Origin: a phage
DNA length: 64,000 bases
Sequence record: PZ809289.1
Strand: one strand, 5' to 3'
Shown: positions 2,679 to 13,547 of the stretch, piece after piece
How the letters are laid out: each line of letters begins with the position of its first letter
Position numbering within the stretch: the stretch's first letter is position 1
Position numbers and translations under genes: made by a program
The notes under the pieces: generated by a model
The model's database searches: none
The model's input: the letters and a program-made list of their open reading frames with translations, nothing else
What the model was told of the DNA's origin: nothing

Positions 2679-2936
2679 ATGAAAACTTACCAAGAATTTA
2701 TTACAGAATCCACTTTAGTTTCTAAACGTTGGAATATGATTGTAAACGTTAAACCTTCCGGCACTGAAGTTTCTATGGCCGACCCTAATGATGACGAACT
2801 TGAGCACGCTTTTAGCTCTAAAGAAACTGACGAGAAAGTGGTTAAGCAACTGGTTGCTGATGCAGATCAACTTCGTAAAGTAGCAGATGTTGTTAAGCTG
2901 TTTACTAAGAAAGGTTTTAAACACGAAGAACGTTAA
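2679..2936 (+). CDS. Internal head protein-like (85 aa) with capsid-targeting sequence
   Basis: N-terminus MKTYQEFITEST. Confidence 0.8.
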   Translation: MKTYQEFITESTLVSKRWNMIVNVKPSGTEVSMADPNDDELEHAFSSKETDEKVVKQLVADADQLRKVADVVKLFTKKGFKHEER

Positions 2937-3052
2937 TTAGCATTTTAAATGGGAGCAACCTGGACCTCACAATTCTGTGAGGGACTCCCGCCAACCTGTA
3001 ATAAGGTCGAGCCCAAGTGCGGTAATGGGTAAATGCAGAAAGGGACGAATTA

Positions 3053-3613
3053 ATGTGCCAAGGAACGGCCCTCAAAGGAAATACTATGAAATTTTTAACC
3101 CCTATTTATCTAACCTTAATGCACGCCTTCGCTGAACGCGCCATTGAACGTTTAGACTCAGACCAATATACCTGGTATGAACCTACTTCACGAATGCAAG
3201 AGTTTGGTACTCTTCGTCTTGATGGCGGTCGACAAACGGGTAAAACAAGTGCCATTGCGCAGTTTGCTGCGGATTGGGTTTCCAAAGGTAATGATGTGAT
3301 TGTTATGTCGAGTTCTTCGCATCGCTCGCGAGAAATTTGTAATATAATAAAACAGGTTTCTAAGGCACACCCACATCTCCAAGTCGAAGGTCCCGGTTTT
3401 GTTGTCTATGATACCGTGCGCAGTTTCCTTGATGAAGACAATTTCCATAAGTATCGTGGACTATCTGTTACTCGATTATTGATTATTATCGAAGAGCCAA
3501 TGCGCCTTCCAACGATGGATAAGTTCTATGAAGCTTACCAGGTAATGATTAATAAATTTATGTGCCAAGGCGACAAGCCTTTGCCTCTGTTCTTTGTGAT
3601 AGGAATGCAATGA
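3053..3613 (+). CDS. Hypothetical protein with P-loop-like GRQTGKTS motif (186 aa; alternative start 3086)
   Basis: ORF with RBS AAGGGA before ATG 3053; second RBS AAGGAA before ATG 3086; Walker-A-like DGGRQTGKTS. Confidence 0.55.
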   Translation: MCQGTALKGNTMKFLTPIYLTLMHAFAERAIERLDSDQYTWYEPTSRMQEFGTLRLDGGRQTGKTSAIAQFAADWVSKGNDVIVMSSSSHRSREICNIIKQVSKAHPHLQVEGPGFVVYDTVRSFLDEDNFHKYRGLSVTRLLIIIEEPMRLPTMDKFYEAYQVMINKFMCQGDKPLPLFFVIGMQ

Positions 3614-3906
3614 TGACCGATGAAGAACTTTTTGAGTTCTGTTATTTCTCACGTAAGGTCCGAAGAGAGGACCTTACTGCAAATTTCGAATATGCTTATT
3701 TCTACCCACTAGAATACGTGTTCATGACAGGGCCCTTTAAGGGCTCTCGTTTTAGATGTCATGCTCCTAGTATCCGATTAATGAAACAGGTTCCTTACTT
3801 CACTCTCGAGTTCATCTCAGGGCCTTGTAAGGGTATTATTACTCGTAGTCTCTTGACTTATGACCAAGAGATTCATATGATTTCTGACTGGAAAAAATAT
3901 GTCTAA
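3610..3906 (+). CDS. Hypothetical protein (98 aa)
   Basis: ATG overlapping upstream stop (ATGA coupling); track ORF begins at upstream GTG 3562. Confidence 0.5.
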   Translation: MMTDEELFEFCYFSRKVRREDLTANFEYAYFYPLEYVFMTGPFKGSRFRCHAPSIRLMKQVPYFTLEFISGPCKGIITRSLLTYDQEIHMISDWKKYV

Positions 3907-4117
3907 ATTGACAATTGAAGGCTCTGATGAAGCTCTGAAGATGTTTGTTGACTGGTTCCATGAACAAGGCGAGCATGGCTTTATGGAATGTTGGGATGGC
4001 GGACAATGGAATGGTAAAGAAACCGTTTATCCTAGCACATATATCTCTGTTCGTGGTGGATATGATGGGATTCATTTAGTTGAATATGATATTGCATCTG
4101 ATGAGGAAGTGAAATGA
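3899..4117 (+). CDS. Hypothetical acidic protein (72 aa)
   Basis: ORF overlapping upstream stop; acidic composition typical of T4 early proteins. Confidence 0.5.
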   Translation: MSKLTIEGSDEALKMFVDWFHEQGEHGFMECWDGGQWNGKETVYPSTYISVRGGYDGIHLVEYDIASDEEVK

Positions 4118-4392
4118 TTGAAGATATCAAGGGTTATAAACCGCATACCGACGATAAAATCGGTAAAGTGAATGCTATCAAAGATGCTGAAGTTCGTCTT
4201 GGGTTAATGTTTAAAGCTCTAGAAGAAGAACATGTTACCTATTATATGAACTTAGATACCGAAGAGGTTTCTGAACAAGAACTAGACCAGGCTCATGAAC
4301 GCATTACCCAGATTCGTAATGCAATTGACCGTCTTAAAGAAGCTAGTATGTGGGCTTGTCGCTCTGTGTTCCAACCAGAAGAAAAGTACTAA
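4114..4392 (+). CDS. Hypothetical protein (92 aa)
   Basis: ATGA start/stop coupling with upstream ORF. Confidence 0.5.
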   Translation: MIEDIKGYKPHTDDKIGKVNAIKDAEVRLGLMFKALEEEHVTYYMNLDTEEVSEQELDQAHERITQIRNAIDRLKEASMWACRSVFQPEEKY

Positions 4393-4396
4393 AGCA

Positions 4397-4425
4397 GTTT
4401 ACATCTCCTGTAGGTATGATACTAT
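4397..4425 (+). promoter_or_regulatory. Early promoter with stem-loop (PeSL-like) upstream of regB
   Basis: GTTTAC 4397-4402, TACTAT 4420-4425, CCTATCAAC box, inverted repeat ATCTCCTGTAG/CTACAGGAGAT around the SD. Confidence 0.6.
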
Positions 4426-4453
4426 AAACCTATCAACTACAGGAGATTACAAA

Positions 4454-4912
4454 ATGTCAGAAATTAATTCAGAAGTATTCATCCGCCGCAACAAATTACG
4501 TCGTCAGTTCGAAACCGAATTCCGTGAACTGAATGCGTCCATCAAAAAAGCCGCCATTAAGAGCGGAGTCCCAGCCTTCTTTATTAAGTACTCTAATCAC
4601 TTGTTGGACCGTGCTATCCAACGTGAAATCGACGAAAAATACGTTTTTGCTTTATTCAAGCAACTCCATAACCATGTTAAAGAAATTCATGAATTTTTAA
4701 TCCAGGAACCTCTACCTGATGTAGAATCCGAAATTGTCCCTGGTAAAGTGTATCGTCCATTGCGTCTCGAAATTACCGATAAAACCTTATGGCTAGGTAT
4801 GACAGTAGACCGTAAACATCCTGATAAAGGATACTCATTAAAATGTCGTATGGCATTTGTTAACTCTAAACGTTTAGAAGGTAAAACCAGCACGAAAGTA
4901 ATCTATCTTTAA
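4454..4912 (+). CDS. regB: RegB sequence-specific endoribonuclease
   Basis: MSEINSEVFIRRNKLRRQFETEFRELN...HLLDRAIQREIDEKYVF...LEITDKTLWLG closely matches T4 RegB (about 152 aa). Confidence 0.9.
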   Translation: MSEINSEVFIRRNKLRRQFETEFRELNASIKKAAIKSGVPAFFIKYSNHLLDRAIQREIDEKYVFALFKQLHNHVKEIHEFLIQEPLPDVESEIVPGKVYRPLRLEITDKTLWLGMTVDRKHPDKGYSLKCRMAFVNSKRLEGKTSTKVIYL

Positions 4913-5821: not shown

Positions 5822-6285
5822 TTATTGATTATATTAAGGGCGATATCGTCGCCCTGTTTCTTCAAGGTAATAATGTTGCACACGGGTGCAACTGTTTCCA
5901 CACAATGGGTTCAGGTGTAGCTGGGCAATTGGCTAAGGCTTATCCGCCTATTCTCGCTATCGATAAAACTACTTATTTAGGCAATTTGGCAAAACTTGGC
6001 ACGTTTACTCAAGCTACAGGTAATAATGGCCAAATTTGCTATAATTTATATACCCAATACGAACCAGGCCCTAATCTTGATTATGGTGCTTTAGTAAACT
6101 GTATGATAGAATTAAATCAACAAGCAAAAGGTCTTTTGTTTAAACCAAGAATTTATATCCCTCGCATTGGTTGTGGTATTGCTGGTGGTGATTGGGACAA
6201 GGTTTATCAATTGATTAATTTGTTTACTCCTGATATTAATTTAGTGGTGGTAGATTATGAAAGCCCATTACCCGCATCCGTTTGA
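5818..6285 (+). CDS. Macro-domain protein (155 aa)
   Basis: Motifs VAHGCNCFHTMGSGVAGQLAKA (N-terminal Gly-rich ADP-ribose-binding loop) and IPRIGCGIAGGDW (C-terminal macro motif). Confidence 0.65.
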   Translation: MIIDYIKGDIVALFLQGNNVAHGCNCFHTMGSGVAGQLAKAYPPILAIDKTTYLGNLAKLGTFTQATGNNGQICYNLYTQYEPGPNLDYGALVNCMIELNQQAKGLLFKPRIYIPRIGCGIAGGDWDKVYQLINLFTPDINLVVVDYESPLPASV

Positions 6286-6469
6286 CCCTAAAAACAAAGC
6301 GGAAATTATTCGACGCTGGACCGAAACACGAGTAACTAAATGCCCTATAAAAAGTCAACACAACACCGATAAATGGTATATTGGTGAATATGTTGAATAT
6401 ACTTTTATAGATAAAAATAAACGTAAACAGCATGTAGAAGAATATTGCTTAAAGGTGCAATGGTTATGA
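6257..6469 (+). CDS. Hypothetical protein (70 aa)
   Basis: ORF overlapping end of macro gene; weak RBS. Confidence 0.4.
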   Translation: MKAHYPHPFDPKNKAEIIRRWTETRVTKCPIKSQHNTDKWYIGEYVEYTFIDKNKRKQHVEEYCLKVQWL

Positions 6470-6651
6470 GTCTGAGTAAAGAACAGAAAGATAAATTGTT
6501 TGAGCTTATCCATGAACTTCTAGATGAGCATGCAGAAGCAAATTCTTTTTATGATGAATATGGCCCGCTATCTCCCGAACATCAGGAAGAATTTGTCAAT
6601 CGATTTGATGAGAAAGAAAACGAATTAATAGCTTATGTGAATACGCTTTAA
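6460..6651 (+). CDS. Hypothetical acidic protein (63 aa; alt starts 6445 TTG, 6466)
   Basis: RBS AAGGTG 5 nt upstream of ATG 6460. Confidence 0.45.
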   Translation: MVMSLSKEQKDKLFELIHELLDEHAEANSFYDEYGPLSPEHQEEFVNRFDEKENELIAYVNTL

Positions 6652-6660
6652 GAAGGTAAT

Positions 6661-7398
6661 ATGGCAAAGGAATTCCATTATAATTACTTGACTGTAATAA
6701 AAACCCATAAGGCAAATTATTACTATGTAGGTAAACACTCCACTGATAATCTTTCAGACGGGTATTATGGAAGTGGTACGGTAGTTAAAAATATTTGTAA
6801 AAAGCATCCTTATAAAACTCGTATATTAGAATTCTTCGAATCTGAAGAAGAGGCGTATGCCGCCGAAATTCCTTTAGTTGAAAAGGCTAAATTAAAATAT
6901 GGTAAGCATTCTTTAAATTTTGCTGATGGCGGAAGAGGTAAAAAGAAAGGAACCAAATTATCTAATTTAACTAAACAGAAAATGTCTAGGTCTAGAAAAG
7001 GAGTTAAATGGAGCAAAGCCAGAATAGAAGCTTCTAAATTCACCACTTCTAATAAAGGTTTAAACCATTATTCCAATAGAATAGGATTTAGTGATGAGCA
7101 TAAAGCTAAAATAGGATTAGCCTCTAAAAAATTAAAAGGATTTAAACATAGCGCTGAAACCATAGAAAATATGAGTAACGCCAAAAAGGGCAAAAAGAAT
7201 CCCATGTACGGTAAAAAGGGCGCTATGGCAGGAAAACCTTCTCCTATAAGAAACGAATCTTGGAAATTTTACGATGAATTAAAACTCTTATGGGAAGAAT
7301 CCAATAAGCCTTCAGCATATATGTTTAAAAAGATAGCTATAAGCAAAGGTTATCCTAATTGCTCTTATAGAGGAGTTGTATTTAAATGGCAAGCTTGA
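6661..7398 (+). CDS. GIY-YIG homing endonuclease (Seg-like) with NUMOD3-type repeats
   Basis: YNYLTVIKTHKANYYYVGKHS GIY-YIG core; repeated NPMYGKKG-type motifs; inserted just upstream of tk. Confidence 0.75.
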   Translation: MAKEFHYNYLTVIKTHKANYYYVGKHSTDNLSDGYYGSGTVVKNICKKHPYKTRILEFFESEEEAYAAEIPLVEKAKLKYGKHSLNFADGGRGKKKGTKLSNLTKQKMSRSRKGVKWSKARIEASKFTTSNKGLNHYSNRIGFSDEHKAKIGLASKKLKGFKHSAETIENMSNAKKGKKNPMYGKKGAMAGKPSPIRNESWKFYDELKLLWEESNKPSAYMFKKIAISKGYPNCSYRGVVFKWQA

Positions 7399-7958
7399 TG
7401 TTTCACTATGCGGCGATGAATTCCGGGAAAACCGCTTCATTGCTAACGGCAGCTCATAACTACAAAGAACGTGGTATGGGCGTACTCCTTTTAAAGCCTG
7501 CGATAGACAATAGAGAATCAAGCCATAGCATTTCGTCTCGTATAGGGATTAGTCAAGAGGCTAATGCCGTGACTCCGGATATGGACCTATACGAGTTCTA
7601 TCGTTGGGCTGAATCTCAAAAAGATATCCACTGTGTATTTGTGGATGAAGCACAGTTCTTAGAACCTGCACAGATAAAACAACTGGCAAAGATAGTAGAC
7701 AATTATAATGTTCCGGTTATGTGCTATGGACTAAGAACTGATTTTCAGGGTAAACTGTTTCCTGGCTCTGCTGAATTACTCGCTACAGCAGATAAACTCG
7801 TTGAGTACAAAGGTGTGTGCCATTGCGGCCGTAAAGCTACTATGACGGCTCGTATCCAGGATGGTATCGCAATTAAGGACGGCGCCCAAGTTTCTATAGG
7901 TGGCAACGATTCTTACGTGTCATTGTGCAGGAAGCACTGGATAGAAATAACGAGTTGA
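7386..7958 (+). CDS. tk: Thymidine kinase
   Basis: MASLMFHYAAMNSGKTASLLTAAHNYKERGM... with Walker A and C-terminal zinc ribbon CHCGRKAT...C; matches T4 Tk. Confidence 0.95.
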   Translation: MASLMFHYAAMNSGKTASLLTAAHNYKERGMGVLLLKPAIDNRESSHSISSRIGISQEANAVTPDMDLYEFYRWAESQKDIHCVFVDEAQFLEPAQIKQLAKIVDNYNVPVMCYGLRTDFQGKLFPGSAELLATADKLVEYKGVCHCGRKATMTARIQDGIAIKDGAQVSIGGNDSYVSLCRKHWIEITS

Positions 7959-7965
7959 GGGTATT

Positions 7966-8244
7966 ATGGACCTAAATTCAAAGATTTTAATTCTAGCGTT
8001 CGCTGTGGCCATTTCTTATATTGTTCTTTCGCCTATCATGGATGATGTGGCTTACAAAAGAGAGATAGAGGTTGTAGCAGCGACGTATAATGCTAATAAT
8101 AAAGAGTGTCCTAATAAAAATGGGATGGATTTAATTAAAGCGCATTATATGCTTTCCATTACCTCGCCTATACAGAGGAATTGGGTTGAATATAATTTTA
8201 ACGACGTGTTCTATTCTTATTGTCGTAAGCTTAAAAAGCTATAA
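7966..8244 (+). CDS. Hypothetical membrane-anchored protein (92 aa)
   Basis: Hydrophobic N-terminus ILILAFAVAISYIVL. Confidence 0.5.
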   Translation: MDLNSKILILAFAVAISYIVLSPIMDDVAYKREIEVVAATYNANNKECPNKNGMDLIKAHYMLSITSPIQRNWVEYNFNDVFYSYCRKLKKL

Positions 8245-8247
8245 ATA
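8240..8247 (+). promoter_or_regulatory. T4-type late promoter box TATAAATA
   Basis: Exact TATAAATA about 90 nt upstream of lipoprotein ORF 8337. Confidence 0.4.
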
Positions 8248-8336
8248 ATAATACTAACCGTAGAGCTTTAGCTTTTGGTAATCGCTATCGGTTAAGGCCG
8301 AAAGGCAAATAGTATAAAACAACAAAGGACTTTTGT

Positions 8337-9000: not shown

Positions 9001-9005
9001 TCAAA

Positions 9006-9031
9006 GGTCTCACTTCGGTGGGACCTTTTTT
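9006..9031 (+). terminator. Rho-independent terminator (8-bp stem, UUCG tetraloop, U6)
   Basis: GGTCTCAC-TTCG-GTGGGACC followed by TTTTTT. Confidence 0.8.
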
Positions 9032-9040
9032 CGTTTAGGT

Positions 9041-9069
9041 GTTTACATCCTCTAGGAACATGATACTAT
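9041..9069 (+). promoter_or_regulatory. Early promoter (PeSL-like)
   Basis: GTTTAC 9041-9046, TG-extended TACTAT 9064-9069, CCTATCAAC box. Confidence 0.6.
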
Positions 9070-10421: not shown

Positions 10422-10874
10422 ATGATTATCAATGCAAACTCTTGGCACGCTAAACTTCATGACCGTTTTTATGACAGTCATTCTCGACCGCACTCTTTAT
10501 GTGCTTACTTCTGGAAAATGGTTTGGGCTTGTTTTGCTTGTGCTGTTGTTGCAGGTAGTACGCTTTTTGGATTAACTGTTGCAGGTGTTGGTGTATTAGA
10601 GCATTTCTTTGTATTAAGTACCCCTGTTCTGTTGAGTCTAGGGTTTGTTTTAGGATTGGTTGCAATAGCTCTTATTATTGCGCTATCCATTGGTTTGGCA
10701 TTAGGTGTGATGAATTTACACGCATGGTATGATGCACGTAGAGAAGAAAAGGAATGGCAACGTATTCAAGCTGAGCGTGAAGGCCGAGAAACTAAAGAAA
10801 ATATCGTTATTCAATACATTAAAGCTCGTAAATCTAAGGTCTGTCCGGTAATCCACTTCGAGGACAAAGAATGA
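10422..10874 (+). CDS. Hypothetical membrane protein (150 aa)
   Basis: Two long hydrophobic segments (VWACFACAVVAGSTLFGLTVAGVGVL..., LLSLGFVLGLVAIALIIALSIGLALGV). Confidence 0.55.
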   Translation: MIINANSWHAKLHDRFYDSHSRPHSLCAYFWKMVWACFACAVVAGSTLFGLTVAGVGVLEHFFVLSTPVLLSLGFVLGLVAIALIIALSIGLALGVMNLHAWYDARREEKEWQRIQAEREGRETKENIVIQYIKARKSKVCPVIHFEDKE

Positions 10875-11881
10875 GAACAGTTATGAAAGGCTACTTCGGT
10901 AGCCACCTTTATGGAACAAGTACTCCGGAATCTGACGTCGATTTTAAAGAAATCTTTGTTCCACATCCGCGTGATATTCTGTTAGGTACGGCTATGAACC
11001 ATACCAACCTGAATACGAATAACACTGCTTCCAAAAACACTAAAGATGATGTTGACCATGAGCTTTACAGCCTGAAATATTTCTTTAAACTAGCGGCTGA
11101 AGGCGAAACCGTTGCTCTGGACATGATTCATACTCCACCTGAACTGGTGGTTAAATCTGATTTACCTGATGTATGGAAATTTATCCAAGACAATCGTTCT
11201 CGGTTCTATACGACTAACATGAAAGCCTATTTAGGGTACGTCCGTAAGCAAGCTTCTAAATATGGTGTTAAGGGTTCTCGACTAGCTGCACTGCGTGGTG
11301 TACTGGCTATTGTTAACCAGATTCCTGAACAGTGGGTCGATTATCAAGAAGATGGTTCGACTAAACAACGTCGTACTAAGGTAGAAGATATTAAACATCG
11401 ACTCCCTGAAAATGAGTTCTGTGAATGGGTATTCCATAACCATGAGAAAACAGGCCCTCAAACGTTCTATACTGTTCTAGGACGTAAGTACCAAACTACT
11501 TTGTCTTTAATCGAGCTCAAGCAATCTCTGAATAAGCTTGATGCTGAATATGGCGAACGTGCTCGTAAGGCTGAAGCTAATGAAGGTATTGACTGGAAAG
11601 CTCTGAGCCATGCTTATCGGGCTGGATATCAATTGTTGGAAATCTACCAAACAGGCGACCTGGTATTCCCATTGCGCGAAGCCTCTATCATTAAGCTGAT
11701 TAAGGCCGGTGAACTTCCATTTAAAGAGGTCCAAGAACTTCTTGAAGACACTGTTGATTTAGTCGAAGTACTGGCTATCCAGGCTCATAAGAACGGTATG
11801 CCTGCTAAGGTAGATATGAAGTTCTGGGACAAGTTTGTTGAAGAGGTATACCTTGACAACCACAACTCTTATTATCGATAA
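10871..11881 (+). CDS. Pol-beta-superfamily (minimal) nucleotidyltransferase-domain protein (336 aa)
   Basis: GSHLYGTSTPESDVDF fits the GS-x9-13-DxD nucleotidyltransferase signature; ATGA coupling. Confidence 0.6.
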   Translation: MRTVMKGYFGSHLYGTSTPESDVDFKEIFVPHPRDILLGTAMNHTNLNTNNTASKNTKDDVDHELYSLKYFFKLAAEGETVALDMIHTPPELVVKSDLPDVWKFIQDNRSRFYTTNMKAYLGYVRKQASKYGVKGSRLAALRGVLAIVNQIPEQWVDYQEDGSTKQRRTKVEDIKHRLPENEFCEWVFHNHEKTGPQTFYTVLGRKYQTTLSLIELKQSLNKLDAEYGERARKAEANEGIDWKALSHAYRAGYQLLEIYQTGDLVFPLREASIIKLIKAGELPFKEVQELLEDTVDLVEVLAIQAHKNGMPAKVDMKFWDKFVEEVYLDNHNSYYR

Positions 11882-11888
11882 CGAAGAA

Positions 11889-12077
11889 ATGAAGGTCTTT
11901 TTATCATATGGAAGACCCCATAAAACCCGACGTTGGTATCTTGAAGCTGTCTGTAAAGAAACCGGACGTCGAGTCAATATCAAGTACGTGTGCAAACCTA
12001 CGCCTAAACAGACAAGACAATTTGTTAACTGGGCTATAAATGATATACGCTTCCATAATTTTTGGAGCGCAATTTAG
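11889..12077 (+). CDS. Hypothetical basic protein (62 aa)
   Basis: ORF between NTase gene and terminator; track start 11835 overlaps upstream gene. Confidence 0.4.
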   Translation: MKVFLSYGRPHKTRRWYLEAVCKETGRRVNIKYVCKPTPKQTRQFVNWAINDIRFHNFWSAI

Positions 12078-12098
12078 GAACCTTCGGGTTCCTTTTTT
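12077..12098 (+). terminator. Rho-independent terminator (GGAACC-UUCG-GGUUCC-U6)
   Basis: Perfect 6-bp stem, UUCG loop, T6. Confidence 0.8.
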
Positions 12099-12118
12099 GG
12101 GTTTAGTGCAAAAAAAGA

Positions 12119-12147
12119 GTTTACACCTTCGTAGAGCATGTTATTAT
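12119..12147 (+). promoter_or_regulatory. Early promoter (PeSL-like)
   Basis: GTTTAC 12119-12124, TATTAT 12142-12147, GACCTATCAA box. Confidence 0.55.
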
Positions 12148-12172
12148 GGACCTATCAAATCTACTGAGTGAA

Positions 12173-13165
12173 ATGGAGAATATAATGTTAACTATCAAAA
12201 TCAACAAAGGTATCTATCGCGGTAATGTAATCTCCGGTACGTTCATGAGTTCAGGTAAAACCTGGTTCCCTAATAAAATTCATGAATCCGAAGCTCACCT
12301 CGGTGATGGTAAGGTATTTGTACAGATTGATGGTGTTGAACGTGGTGTATGGGTGTTCAAATGTGACGTTGAAATGGAAGGTGCTGAAGCTCCTGCAGTT
12401 GTTACTGAATCCGCTGAAGAAATGAAACATCGCATTAACAAACGTTTTAAAGTAATGAACATGATGACTAGTGGAATCATCGATGGTAAAATTCGTTCCC
12501 TTATCATCTCTGGTGCCGCAGGTATTGGTAAAACATATTCTTTGGATAAAGCATTACAGAATGCCCACGAAAATGAAACTATCGAATATAAATCAATCAA
12601 CGGAAAGATTAGTGGAATCGGTCTTTACGAGCAGCTTTGGAATAACCGCGGCCCTAATAGTGTTCTTCTTATTGATGATGTTGATGTATTCTCTGATATG
12701 GATATCCTGAACCTGTTAAAAGCAGCATTGGATACTGGTGAAAAACGTAAGGTGTGCTGGAGCACTTCAAGTTCTTATCTTGATGATAAAAATATCGATA
12801 AAGAATTTGAGTATGAAGGCACCATCGTGTTCATCACCAACGTTGATATTGACCGTGAATTAGAGCGTGGAACTAAACTTGCTCCACACCTCCAGGCTTT
12901 AGTATCTCGTTCAGTTTACTTAGACCTCGGAGTTCACTCTAACGAAGAGATTATGGTTCGTGTTGAAGACGTTATCCTGTCCACTGATATGATGCAAAAC
13001 CGTGGTCTGACTGATGCCGAGACTTACCAAGCTTTAGCATGGATGAAGGCTAATGTATCTCGTCTTCGTAACGTATCATTACGTACAGCTCTTTATCTGG
13101 CGGACTTCATTGCCACCGATAAAAATGACTGGAGCGAAATCGCTGAAGTTACACTTCTGAAATAA
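12173..13165 (+). CDS. P-loop NTPase (AAA-like ATPase) of unknown role (330 aa)
   Basis: Walker A SGAAGIGKT and Walker B VLLIDDVD; ATG 12146 of the track ORF lies inside the promoter -10, so start moved to 12173 after ACTGAG RBS. Confidence 0.6.
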   Translation: MENIMLTIKINKGIYRGNVISGTFMSSGKTWFPNKIHESEAHLGDGKVFVQIDGVERGVWVFKCDVEMEGAEAPAVVTESAEEMKHRINKRFKVMNMMTSGIIDGKIRSLIISGAAGIGKTYSLDKALQNAHENETIEYKSINGKISGIGLYEQLWNNRGPNSVLLIDDVDVFSDMDILNLLKAALDTGEKRKVCWSTSSSYLDDKNIDKEFEYEGTIVFITNVDIDRELERGTKLAPHLQALVSRSVYLDLGVHSNEEIMVRVEDVILSTDMMQNRGLTDAETYQALAWMKANVSRLRNVSLRTALYLADFIATDKNDWSEIAEVTLLK

Positions 13166-13518: not shown

Positions 13519-13547
13519 GTTTACATCTCCAGTAGAAATGATACTAT
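13519..13547 (+). promoter_or_regulatory. Early promoter with stem-loop (PeSL-like)
   Basis: GTTTAC 13519-13524, TACTAT 13542-13547, CCTATCAAC, inverted repeat TCTCCAGTAG/CTACTGGAG. Confidence 0.6.

Follow-up and report, generated by a model that had tools for sequence, protein, structure and literature searches.

The nrdC.11 and nrdC.10 orthologues of a Dhakavirus phage: a predicted RlaP-type nucleotidyltransferase and a neighbouring AAA+ ATPase

What do two neighbouring early genes of a T4-like phage do, and do they work as one unit or as two? The question is raised by a 64,000-nucleotide stretch of phage DNA (sequence record PZ809289.1; the whole stretch is called the window here), in which a nucleotidyltransferase (NTase) gene is followed on the same strand by an ATPase gene. 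On balance we favour the joint reading that the first product, NrdC.11, is an RlaP-type enzyme that adds nucleoside monophosphates (NMPs) to RNA 3' ends before ligation, that the second, NrdC.10, is a separate AAA+ ATPase, and that the two do not form an obligate pair. The features on which the argument turns are the following.

10871-11881, plus strand: nrdC.11 orthologue, RlaP-family Pol-beta nucleotidyltransferase, 336 aa
10886-11287, plus strand: predicted NTase catalytic domain, residues 6-139, delimited by hhalign to canonical RlaP and by conservation in 98 sequences
11288-11878, plus strand: predicted subfamily-specific C-terminal region, residues 140-336
12185-13165, plus strand: nrdC.10 orthologue, divergent AAA+ ATPase, 326 aa

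With Escherichia phages IME281/QL01 the window shares 96.8% identity, and with other Dhakavirus genomes 90-95%; its source is a Dhakavirus (JS98/QL01-type) T4-like phage. Its gene order is that of Bp7 and T4, and the matching genes of Bp7 are annotated nrdC.11 and nrdC.10. The open reading frame (ORF) at 10871-11881 is 82% identical to T4 NrdC.11, without a gap over all 336 residues; the ATPase ORF is 76% identical to T4 NrdC.10 over the full length and 99% identical to JS98 NrdC.10. In T4 the counterparts carry the accessions NP_049709 (336 aa, 'nucleotidyltransferase') and NP_049708 (325 aa, 'hypothetical protein'), with a gap of 114 bp between their genes. ORF 10871-11881 is the nrdC.11 orthologue and ORF 12185-13165 the nrdC.10 orthologue; in T4 both are non-essential early genes of the plastic mobD-nrdC region. 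The initial annotation of this stretch was right that neither protein is a T4 core replication protein; both are orthologues of accessory genes. It had also held that clear orthology to T4 accessory genes with established, unrelated functions would speak against its proposal. The orthology was found, no established function came with it, and the claim to novelty is gone. Indeed, both assignments were in print by 2006, when Nolan et al. placed nrdC.11 among the COG3541 nucleotidyltransferases and noted a weak AAA match for nrdC.10 (PMC1524935). No experimental study of either T4 protein came to light in a literature search by gene names, accessions, locus tags, PF10127 and COG3541. Both genes and their family assignments are thus known from literature and databases and the window holds no new entity, while their functions in the phage are not established. 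Many GenBank and UniRef homologues of both proteins are named 'thioredoxin', apparently inherited from the nrdC.x labels, and 'HNH homing endonuclease', 'ArsR regulator' and 'RarA' occur in one record each; these names are annotation errors.

The nucleotidyltransferase domain of NrdC.11

The first ORF had originally been picked out by a GS-x9-13-DxD motif. The motif is real (G10-S11-x10-D22-V-D24, GSHLYGTSTPESDVD, nucleotides 10898-10942), and is by itself weak evidence: the bare regular expression has 3 matches among the long ORFs of the window. The assignment to the Pol-beta-type nucleotidyltransferases is borne out by the Pfam RlaP family PF10127 (43.7 bits against a cutoff of 23, E 3.6e-11, above the gathering threshold) and by phrog_388 'nucleotidyltransferase' (E 3.5e-132). 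An exhaustive search of cluster representatives revealed a large family of full-length proteins: 3,966 representatives reached E <= 0.001, of which 1,155 reached E <= 1e-30, and the best 150 matches were mostly aligned over residues ~1-330. Conservation was then read from an alignment of 98 diverse homologues, 33-53% identical to the query, every one of which (98/98) matches PF10127. Invariant or at least 90% conserved are G10, S11, G15, S21, D22, D24, D60, D62 and D84, together with a basic/aromatic set made up of Y123, Q127, K130, Y131, K134, R137, R230, D241, W242, K243, H247 and R250.

To what extent the protein follows RlaP can be seen from profile-profile alignment. When the 98-sequence profile was aligned by hhalign with a canonical 256-aa RlaP (itself a full-length Pfam match of 175 bits), a probability of 95.3% and an E value of 2.2e-8 were obtained over residues 6-139; SDVD of the NTase was paired with SDYD and D62 with the canonical Asp ('ID'), and the C-terminal halves stayed unaligned. 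Likewise, the window NTase and a homologue from a Nitrosospira locus (L124) cover just the first ~140 of the 249 positions of PF10127. The metal-binding carboxylates are probably D22 and D24, with D62 as the putative third. Judged from these alignments, NrdC.11 consists of what appears to be a genuine RlaP catalytic domain joined to a C-terminal region specific to the subfamily. The latter contains a beta-rich insert (~155-208) and a helical bundle with conserved R230, D241-W242-K243, H247 and R250, and in the structure model this bundle weakly resembles helical domains of the HEPN/KNTase type. With 336 aa and two domains the enzyme does not deserve the term 'minimal' that it had been given. 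PDB sequence searches with the NTase and ATPase family profiles found no relative, and no chain of the Pseudomonas enzyme PfRlaP was among the matches.

The gene is under purifying selection, because codon differences from T4 comprise 126 that are synonymous only and 58 that are nonsynonymous. Over residues 148-247 (window 11312-11611) the figures are 45 synonymous and 1 nonsynonymous codon change. Recent recombination with T4 over these residues was considered and rejected, in view of the 45:1 ratio and of a DNA identity of just 80-88%; since the DNA has diverged to that extent, the near-identical protein reflects constraint and not exchange. Yet across other genera no part of the protein varies more than these residues. 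The constraint is therefore strong but lineage-specific, and the segment is possibly a partner- or substrate-binding surface.

It had been suggested at the outset that such an NTase might act in cyclic-nucleotide signalling, in a toxin-antitoxin system or in anti-defence; the ATPase would then be its partner. The GS...DxD motif is indeed common to MNT and CD-NTase enzymes, and marginal matches to NCBIfam MntA and PADLOC PDC-S09 were seen over 17-18 residues at the motif. However, MntA reaches 15.2 bits against a cutoff of 60 and covers residues 8-25 only, PDC-S09 gives E >= 0.004 over 17 residues, and NCBIfam and PADLOC yielded nothing above noise for the NTase, the ATPase or the small DUF7279 protein encoded between them. 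No CD-NTase, SMODS or Mab-21 Pfam match was obtained at E <= 1. The protein has 336 residues and a large second domain, and its adjacent genes encode a membrane protein and DUF7279, with no HEPN toxin, effector or receptor gene among them. Together with the robust RlaP assignment, these profile results largely refute a signalling or toxin-antitoxin role, to which we give almost no weight; an anti-defence role is plausible, but by way of RNA repair.

Proposed role of NrdC.11 in RNA repair

The Pnk/Rnl1 tRNA-repair pathway of T4 is a textbook case of phage counter-defence, and RloC-type nucleases are thought to defeat it by excision of the wobble nucleotide. The biochemistry of RlaP comes from the Pseudomonas enzymes PfRlaP and PaRlaP, which add 1-2 NMPs to the 3'-OH of RNA, do not use DNA or proteins as substrates, and prefer Mn2+ and the 5' half of a cleaved-tRNA mimic (PMC12776372, a preprint of December 2025). 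They show little specificity for the nucleoside triphosphate (NTP), and the species that they label in total RNA are of rRNA and tRNA size; when RlaP was applied before ligation, a tRNA short of one anticodon-loop nucleotide regained aminoacylation (PMC12776372). In the same work RlaP was proposed as an antidote to nucleotide-excising 'smart' ribotoxins such as RloC, and it had been predicted earlier that phage RlaPs restore RloC-removed nucleotides before ligation (PMC7824862).

By analogy, NrdC.11 would add one or two NMPs, independently of a template, to the 3'-OH of broken RNA, and its foremost substrate would be tRNA cut in the anticodon loop. The addition would replace the nucleotide excised by a host nuclease of the RloC type, after which a functional tRNA could be resealed by phage enzymes whose genes lie at other places in the genome, the polynucleotide kinase/phosphatase PseT and the RNA ligases RnlA and RnlB. 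In Bp7, a close relative, the genes pseT (Pnk), rnlA and rnlB are present, tens of kb from the NTase gene. The likely role of NrdC.11, seen in this light, is to put back excised nucleotides at broken RNA 3' ends ahead of ligation by phage Pnk/Rnl; we infer both the 3'-end addition by this subfamily and its link to RloC-type damage. Should NrdC.11 indeed restore the excised wobble nucleotide, T4-like phages would already hold an answer to RloC-type nucleases. That idea dates from publications of 2016-2021, and the biochemistry of the RlaP family from late 2025. What is added here is that in bacteria the link to RtcB, Pnkp/Hen1 and Ro60 extends beyond canonical RlaP to the NrdC.11-type subfamily itself, that this subfamily is distinct from canonical RlaP in its predicted architecture, and that it sometimes stands in tandem with canonical RlaP.

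The bacterial evidence comes from a scan with the family profile over one genome per prokaryotic species, in which neighbours within 6 kb were clustered and recurrent families annotated. Full-length NrdC.11-type proteins (31-51% identity) were found in 80 bacterial and archaeal loci, many of them on chromosome-sized contigs; some contigs of 'bacterial' metagenome-assembled genomes may be phage DNA. The recurrent neighbours among these 80 loci were RtcB (11), Pnkp (8), Hen1 (7) and Ro60/TROVE (5). In 8 loci Pnkp, a kinase-phosphatase-ligase, lies directly upstream of the NrdC.11-type gene on the same strand. At least one of RtcB, Pnkp, Hen1 and Ro60/TROVE is present within 6 kb in 19 of the 80 loci, and in 12 of the 43 with full flanks; these are raw counts without a formal background control, and the figure of 19 counts just the neighbour families that recur in at least 5 loci. 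Because RtcB, Pnkp, Hen1 and Ro60 are roughly single-copy genes, we infer a very large enrichment of RNA-repair neighbours. In addition, three loci carry a second, RlaP-like ORF in tandem after the NrdC.11-type gene (L124 at 5983-7740, L162 at 5971-7328 and L172 at 2918-4766). In L124 and L172 this second ORF is a canonical RlaP of ~250 aa, with an almost full-length Pfam match of 175-215 bits, and the L124 locus of Nitrosospira also encodes Hen1, Pnkp, Ro60 and RtcB. This tandem arrangement suggests that the two types are complementary and not redundant.

Could NrdC.11 act on RNA 3' ends outside anticodon-loop repair, for example by mending the 3'-CCA of tRNA or by tailing host or phage transcripts and so changing their stability? 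RlaPs label rRNA- and tRNA-sized species with little regard to the NTP, the divergent C-terminal domain could redirect NrdC.11 to other RNA, and the bacterial tandems with canonical RlaP suggest non-redundant types. On the other hand, neighbours such as RtcB and Pnkp/Hen1 fit the repair of internal breaks better than tailing, and the characterised RlaPs act preferentially on the 5' half of such a mimic of cleaved tRNA. We therefore consider tailing or CCA repair unlikely, though the foremost of the alternatives. A C-terminal domain unrelated in sequence to that of canonical RlaP would also suit an enzyme with a target that is not RNA, for example one that nucleotidylates a host protein or small molecule after the manner of aminoglycoside and lincosamide nucleotidyltransferases or of the AMPylating MntA, and that thereby, for instance, inactivates a host defence factor. 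It seems somewhat less likely still that this is so, as the catalytic domain is specifically RlaP-like, proteins and DNA are not labelled by RlaPs, and the bacterial neighbourhoods indicate RNA repair.

Several observations weigh against a role of NrdC.11 in RNA repair, and the favoured reading has been graded with them in mind. First, the biochemistry derives from another part of the family: in the sequence similarity network (SSN) of PF10127, T4 NrdC.11 falls in cluster 5, and the assayed Pseudomonas enzymes in cluster 1a (PMC12776372). Only the N-terminal 134 residues of NrdC.11 align with canonical RlaP, and the C-terminal ~200, presumed to be the substrate-binding part, are unrelated to it in sequence; the AlphaFold model of the NTase, built from an alignment of 22 close relatives, has predicted local distance difference test (pLDDT) values of 30-50 over residues 1-100, so that it is unreliable for the catalytic domain. 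Secondly, the tandem loci imply that the NrdC.11-type and canonical enzymes are probably not identical in function, and about three quarters of the bacterial NrdC.11-type loci have no RNA-repair neighbour by neighbour clustering. Thirdly, the phage gene is unlinked to RNA ligase or kinase genes in Bp7, the nrdC.11-mobD.3 segment can be deleted in T4 (PMC9825161), and no phenotype has been reported for T4 nrdC.11.

Separation of nrdC.11 from nrdC.10 and the nature of the ATPase

Whether the two genes make up one unit was approached through the DNA around and between them, which contains the following elements.

10422-10874, plus strand: upstream membrane-protein ORF, 150 aa (phrog_944 'membrane protein', E 5.9e-57); context, outside the enzyme
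11889-12077, plus strand: DUF7279 ORF, 62 aa, a variable cassette gene (Pfam DUF7279, 38.7 bits against a cutoff of 24.5, E 9.2e-10; phrog_8921, E 5.8e-34)
12076-12099, plus strand: intrinsic-terminator-like hairpin GGAACC-TTCG-GGTTCC (12076-12093) with a T-run, the stem-loop half of a PeSL (early promoter with stem-loop)
12119-12147, plus strand: T4-type early promoter GTTTACA-N16-TATTAT, TG-extended (hexamers 12120-12147), which drives nrdC.10

The stop codon TGA of the membrane-protein ORF and the ATG of the NTase overlap (ATGA, 10871-10874), and this ORF accompanies the NTase in the 10 closest loci. The overlap ties the NTase to the upstream transcription unit and suggests that it is co-transcribed and translationally coupled with the membrane-protein gene, not with the ATPase gene. 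On the other side, the 70-nt stretch upstream of the nrdC.10 promoter, hairpin included, has a fold energy of -19.8 kcal/mol. The hairpin is retained in Bp7 (AAGGCC-TTCG-GGCCTT, locus L001, ~7485-7510) and in T4 (GGGAGCC-TTCG-GGCTCCC, locus L175, ~11405-11435, minus strand). It can be seen that the stems differ among the three phages (GGAACC, AAGGCC and GGGAGCC) and that pairing and the TTCG loop are kept; this covariation is consistent with a selected RNA structure. The promoter is likewise conserved in Bp7, QL01 and T4. Since hairpin and early promoter are both conserved between the genes in Bp7 and T4, nrdC.10 has a transcription start of its own.

The extended motif GTTTACA-N16-TAYTAT occurs 10 times in the window, always on the plus strand, against 0.42 expected, and a UUCG-loop hairpin with a T-run lies directly upstream of 3 of the 10 early promoters (9041, 12119 and 42801). 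In the PeSL definition a stem-loop stands upstream of an early promoter of consensus TTTACW...TAYWAT (PMC4122927). A stem-loop, a promoter of the TTTACW-N17-TAYWAT type and gain or loss of an ORF between close relatives are all found at the nrdC.11/nrdC.10 junction, and the terminator followed by a PeSL-like promoter that the initial annotation had placed between the ORFs agrees with the published PeSL. What that description had overlooked is the 62-aa DUF7279 ORF, which precedes the hairpin. This ORF, which fits precisely into the space from the NTase stop to the hairpin, is an indel: 14 of 48 related loci have it, and the junctions of Bp7 and T4 do not. It is a cassette gene acquired at the junction in the window phage. 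Elsewhere in the window, PeSL-like units lie at 9003-9069 (promoter 9041) and in the 42839-42829 region (promoter 42801), and the plus-strand early promoter at 13519-13547 has no hairpin.

Synteny was examined in 48 phage NTase loci; the search patterns were biased to close relatives, and the counts are of loci. The ATPase gene lies downstream of the NTase gene on the same strand in 37 of the 48, T4 included, and is absent in the other 11. Both genes, moreover, are early genes. A simple possibility would thus be that NrdC.11 and NrdC.10 form a functional two-gene module in which, for example, the ATPase delivers or remodels the substrate of the NTase. In contrast, the genes are divided by a terminator hairpin, itself conserved, and by a separate early promoter, and the gap ranges from ~0 to 2.3 kb, with unrelated small cassette ORFs inside. 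The ATPase gene alone can be lost: in loci L047, L050 and L078 (NTase 92% identical), the order mobD.1 - membrane protein - NTase ... nrdC.8 - nrdC.6 is kept and the ATPase gene is absent. Conversely, the ATPase occurs without an NTase within 6 kb in T4-like phages, those of Aeromonas and Vibrio among them, and in more distant, non-T4 phages such as RDJL Phi 1 (among the matches listed). A NrdC.10-like ATPase was found in 0 of the 80 bacterial NTase loci, and Nolan et al. recorded nrdC.11 in all of 6 genomes and nrdC.10 in just 3 of them (PMC1524935). A two-gene module is accordingly improbable. In the three loci just named (~7000-8250), nrdC.10 and the DUF7203 gene are missing together and are replaced by 0.7-1 kb of other sequence.

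There is similarly little to expect from the more ambitious proposal that NrdC.11 is the missing third enzyme of T4 tRNA repair against RloC-type nucleases and that NrdC.10 takes part in this conflict too, for instance as the factor that extracts damaged tRNA or presents it; if it were true, phages that keep both genes would possess a two-part counter-counter-defence unit. By synteny, nrdC.11 and nrdC.10 are neighbours and no obligate pair, they are probably not a unit, and NrdC.10 should not be treated as the partner of NrdC.11.

What, then, is NrdC.10? Its features are these.

12185-12379, plus strand: N-terminal beta-rich domain, residues 1-65 (strands 2-11, 14-27, 42-48, 51-57 and 62-65 in the model)
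12512-12535, plus strand: Walker A GAAGIGKT, G110-AAGIG-K116-T117, invariant in 28 homologues
12662-12679, plus strand: Walker B VLLIDD, V160-LLI-D164-D165 (DD, not DE), D164 and D165 invariant in 28 homologues

The recognition of this ORF as a P-loop ATPase with Walker A and B motifs was correct, and it can be specified as AAA+; the Walker A pattern by itself is weak evidence, with 5 matches among the long ORFs of the window. The start, which had been placed at 12173, is most likely the ATG at 12185 (MLTIK...), because GGAG stands 6 nt upstream and because the equivalent Met is the first residue of T4 NrdC.10 and opens both the PHROG profile and the 28-sequence alignment; with this start, residues 1-326 align to positions 1-327 of phrog_1250 (E 1.9e-162). 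A further ATG at 12146 overlaps the -10 hexamer of the promoter. In Bp7, nrdC.10 (L001, 7513-8571) is annotated with 352 aa from a start upstream of the conserved early promoter; there too, comparison with the T4 gene and with the family alignment favours the shorter MLTIK/MKTV start.

The structure model is confident (pLDDT 90.5) and consists of an alpha-beta-alpha core (77-250) and a helical lid (253-326). An N-terminal domain is present as had been described, only that it spans ~65 residues and not ~100; it is beta-rich and has no Pfam match. Residues 66-76 form a disordered linker (pLDDT <50 at 68-72), and residues 77-99 already belong to the AAA+ core. Between helix 3 and strand 4 a 30-residue insert with strands (188-210), containing the invariant R188 and W192, looks in the model like a pre-sensor-1 hairpin. 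Besides the Walker motifs, N219, R242 (SRS motif), R295 and R300 are invariant in the 28 homologues; assigned by position, N219 may act as polar sensor-1, and R242 and R295/R300 as Arg-finger and sensor-2 residues, which would fit a working AAA+ site. Walker A/B, an alpha-beta-alpha core with a helical lid and residues at the sensor-1, Arg-finger and sensor-2 positions together place NrdC.10 in the AAA+ fold. Profile matches to AAA_14/22, Hda, Cdc6 and clamp-loader PHROGs were all below threshold, and a fold search of BFVD returned just uncharacterised phage ATPases, including one of the non-T4 Roseobacter phage RDJL Phi 1. Among the matches listed, distant homologues align from residue ~60-85 on, without the N-terminal domain, and their neighbourhoods show no recurrent partner, the genes nearby being those of a ribonucleotide reductase small subunit, a topoisomerase, a homing endonuclease and unknowns.

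Taken together, NrdC.10 is a widespread phage AAA+ ATPase family whose function is not established. Its gene has an early promoter to itself, past the hairpin terminator, and we propose that the protein most likely serves as an independent ATP-driven remodelling factor, presumably oligomeric, for which the N-terminal domain could be the substrate adaptor.

Comparison with known systems

NrdC.10 may be compared with the AAA+ proteins that carry a pre-sensor-1 insert (MoxR-type NorQ/CbbQ, MCM, NtrC-type, HslU and RuvB) and with the clamp-loader and initiator types (RFC, Hda/DnaA and Cdc6). It shares with them the core and lid, Walker A/B, sensor-1 N219, the SRS motif with R242 before strand 5, and R295/R300 in the lid. 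Unlike them, it has DD in Walker B, a unique N-terminal beta domain, and no evident VWA, protease, DNA-binding or clamp partner. From T4 and JS98 NrdC.10 (phrog_1250) the window ATPase shows no substantive difference, and its genomic slot is identical.

The T4 nrdC.11 locus has the same slot, after mobD.1 and before nrdC.10, and the matching hairpin and promoter downstream. It differs in having a mobD homing endonuclease gene upstream, where the window phage has the membrane-protein ORF, and in lacking the DUF7279 ORF. Like PeSL cassettes (PMC2839356, PMC4122927), the junction has a stem-loop and T-run with TTTACA...TATTAT no more than ~25 nt further on, and it lies where close relatives differ by an ORF, here DUF7279. 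Unlike a mobile PeSL cassette, however, its hairpin and promoter are conserved out to T4, which makes it a stable regulatory boundary and no recently moved cassette.

The closest comparison for the predicted enzyme is RlaP itself (PfRlaP/PaRlaP). Both have the homologous Pol-beta NTase domain with the motif pattern hG[SA]HLYG...SD.D...D, and both are associated with RtcB and Pnkp/Hen1 in bacteria. In canonical RlaP a helical C-terminal domain follows, whose terminal helix packs onto the NTase domain; in NrdC.11 the model shows a helical bundle after the NTase domain. RlaP has ~250 aa and NrdC.11 ~336 aa, and NrdC.11, unlike RlaP, contains a 27-residue Asn/Thr-rich insert after the DxD strand, besides the beta-rich insert described above. 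Its C-terminal region cannot be aligned to the Pfam RlaP model, of which positions 143-249 stay unmatched. NrdC.11-type proteins belong to SSN cluster 5, as against 1a for the assayed RlaPs, and can stand in tandem with a canonical RlaP in the same locus.

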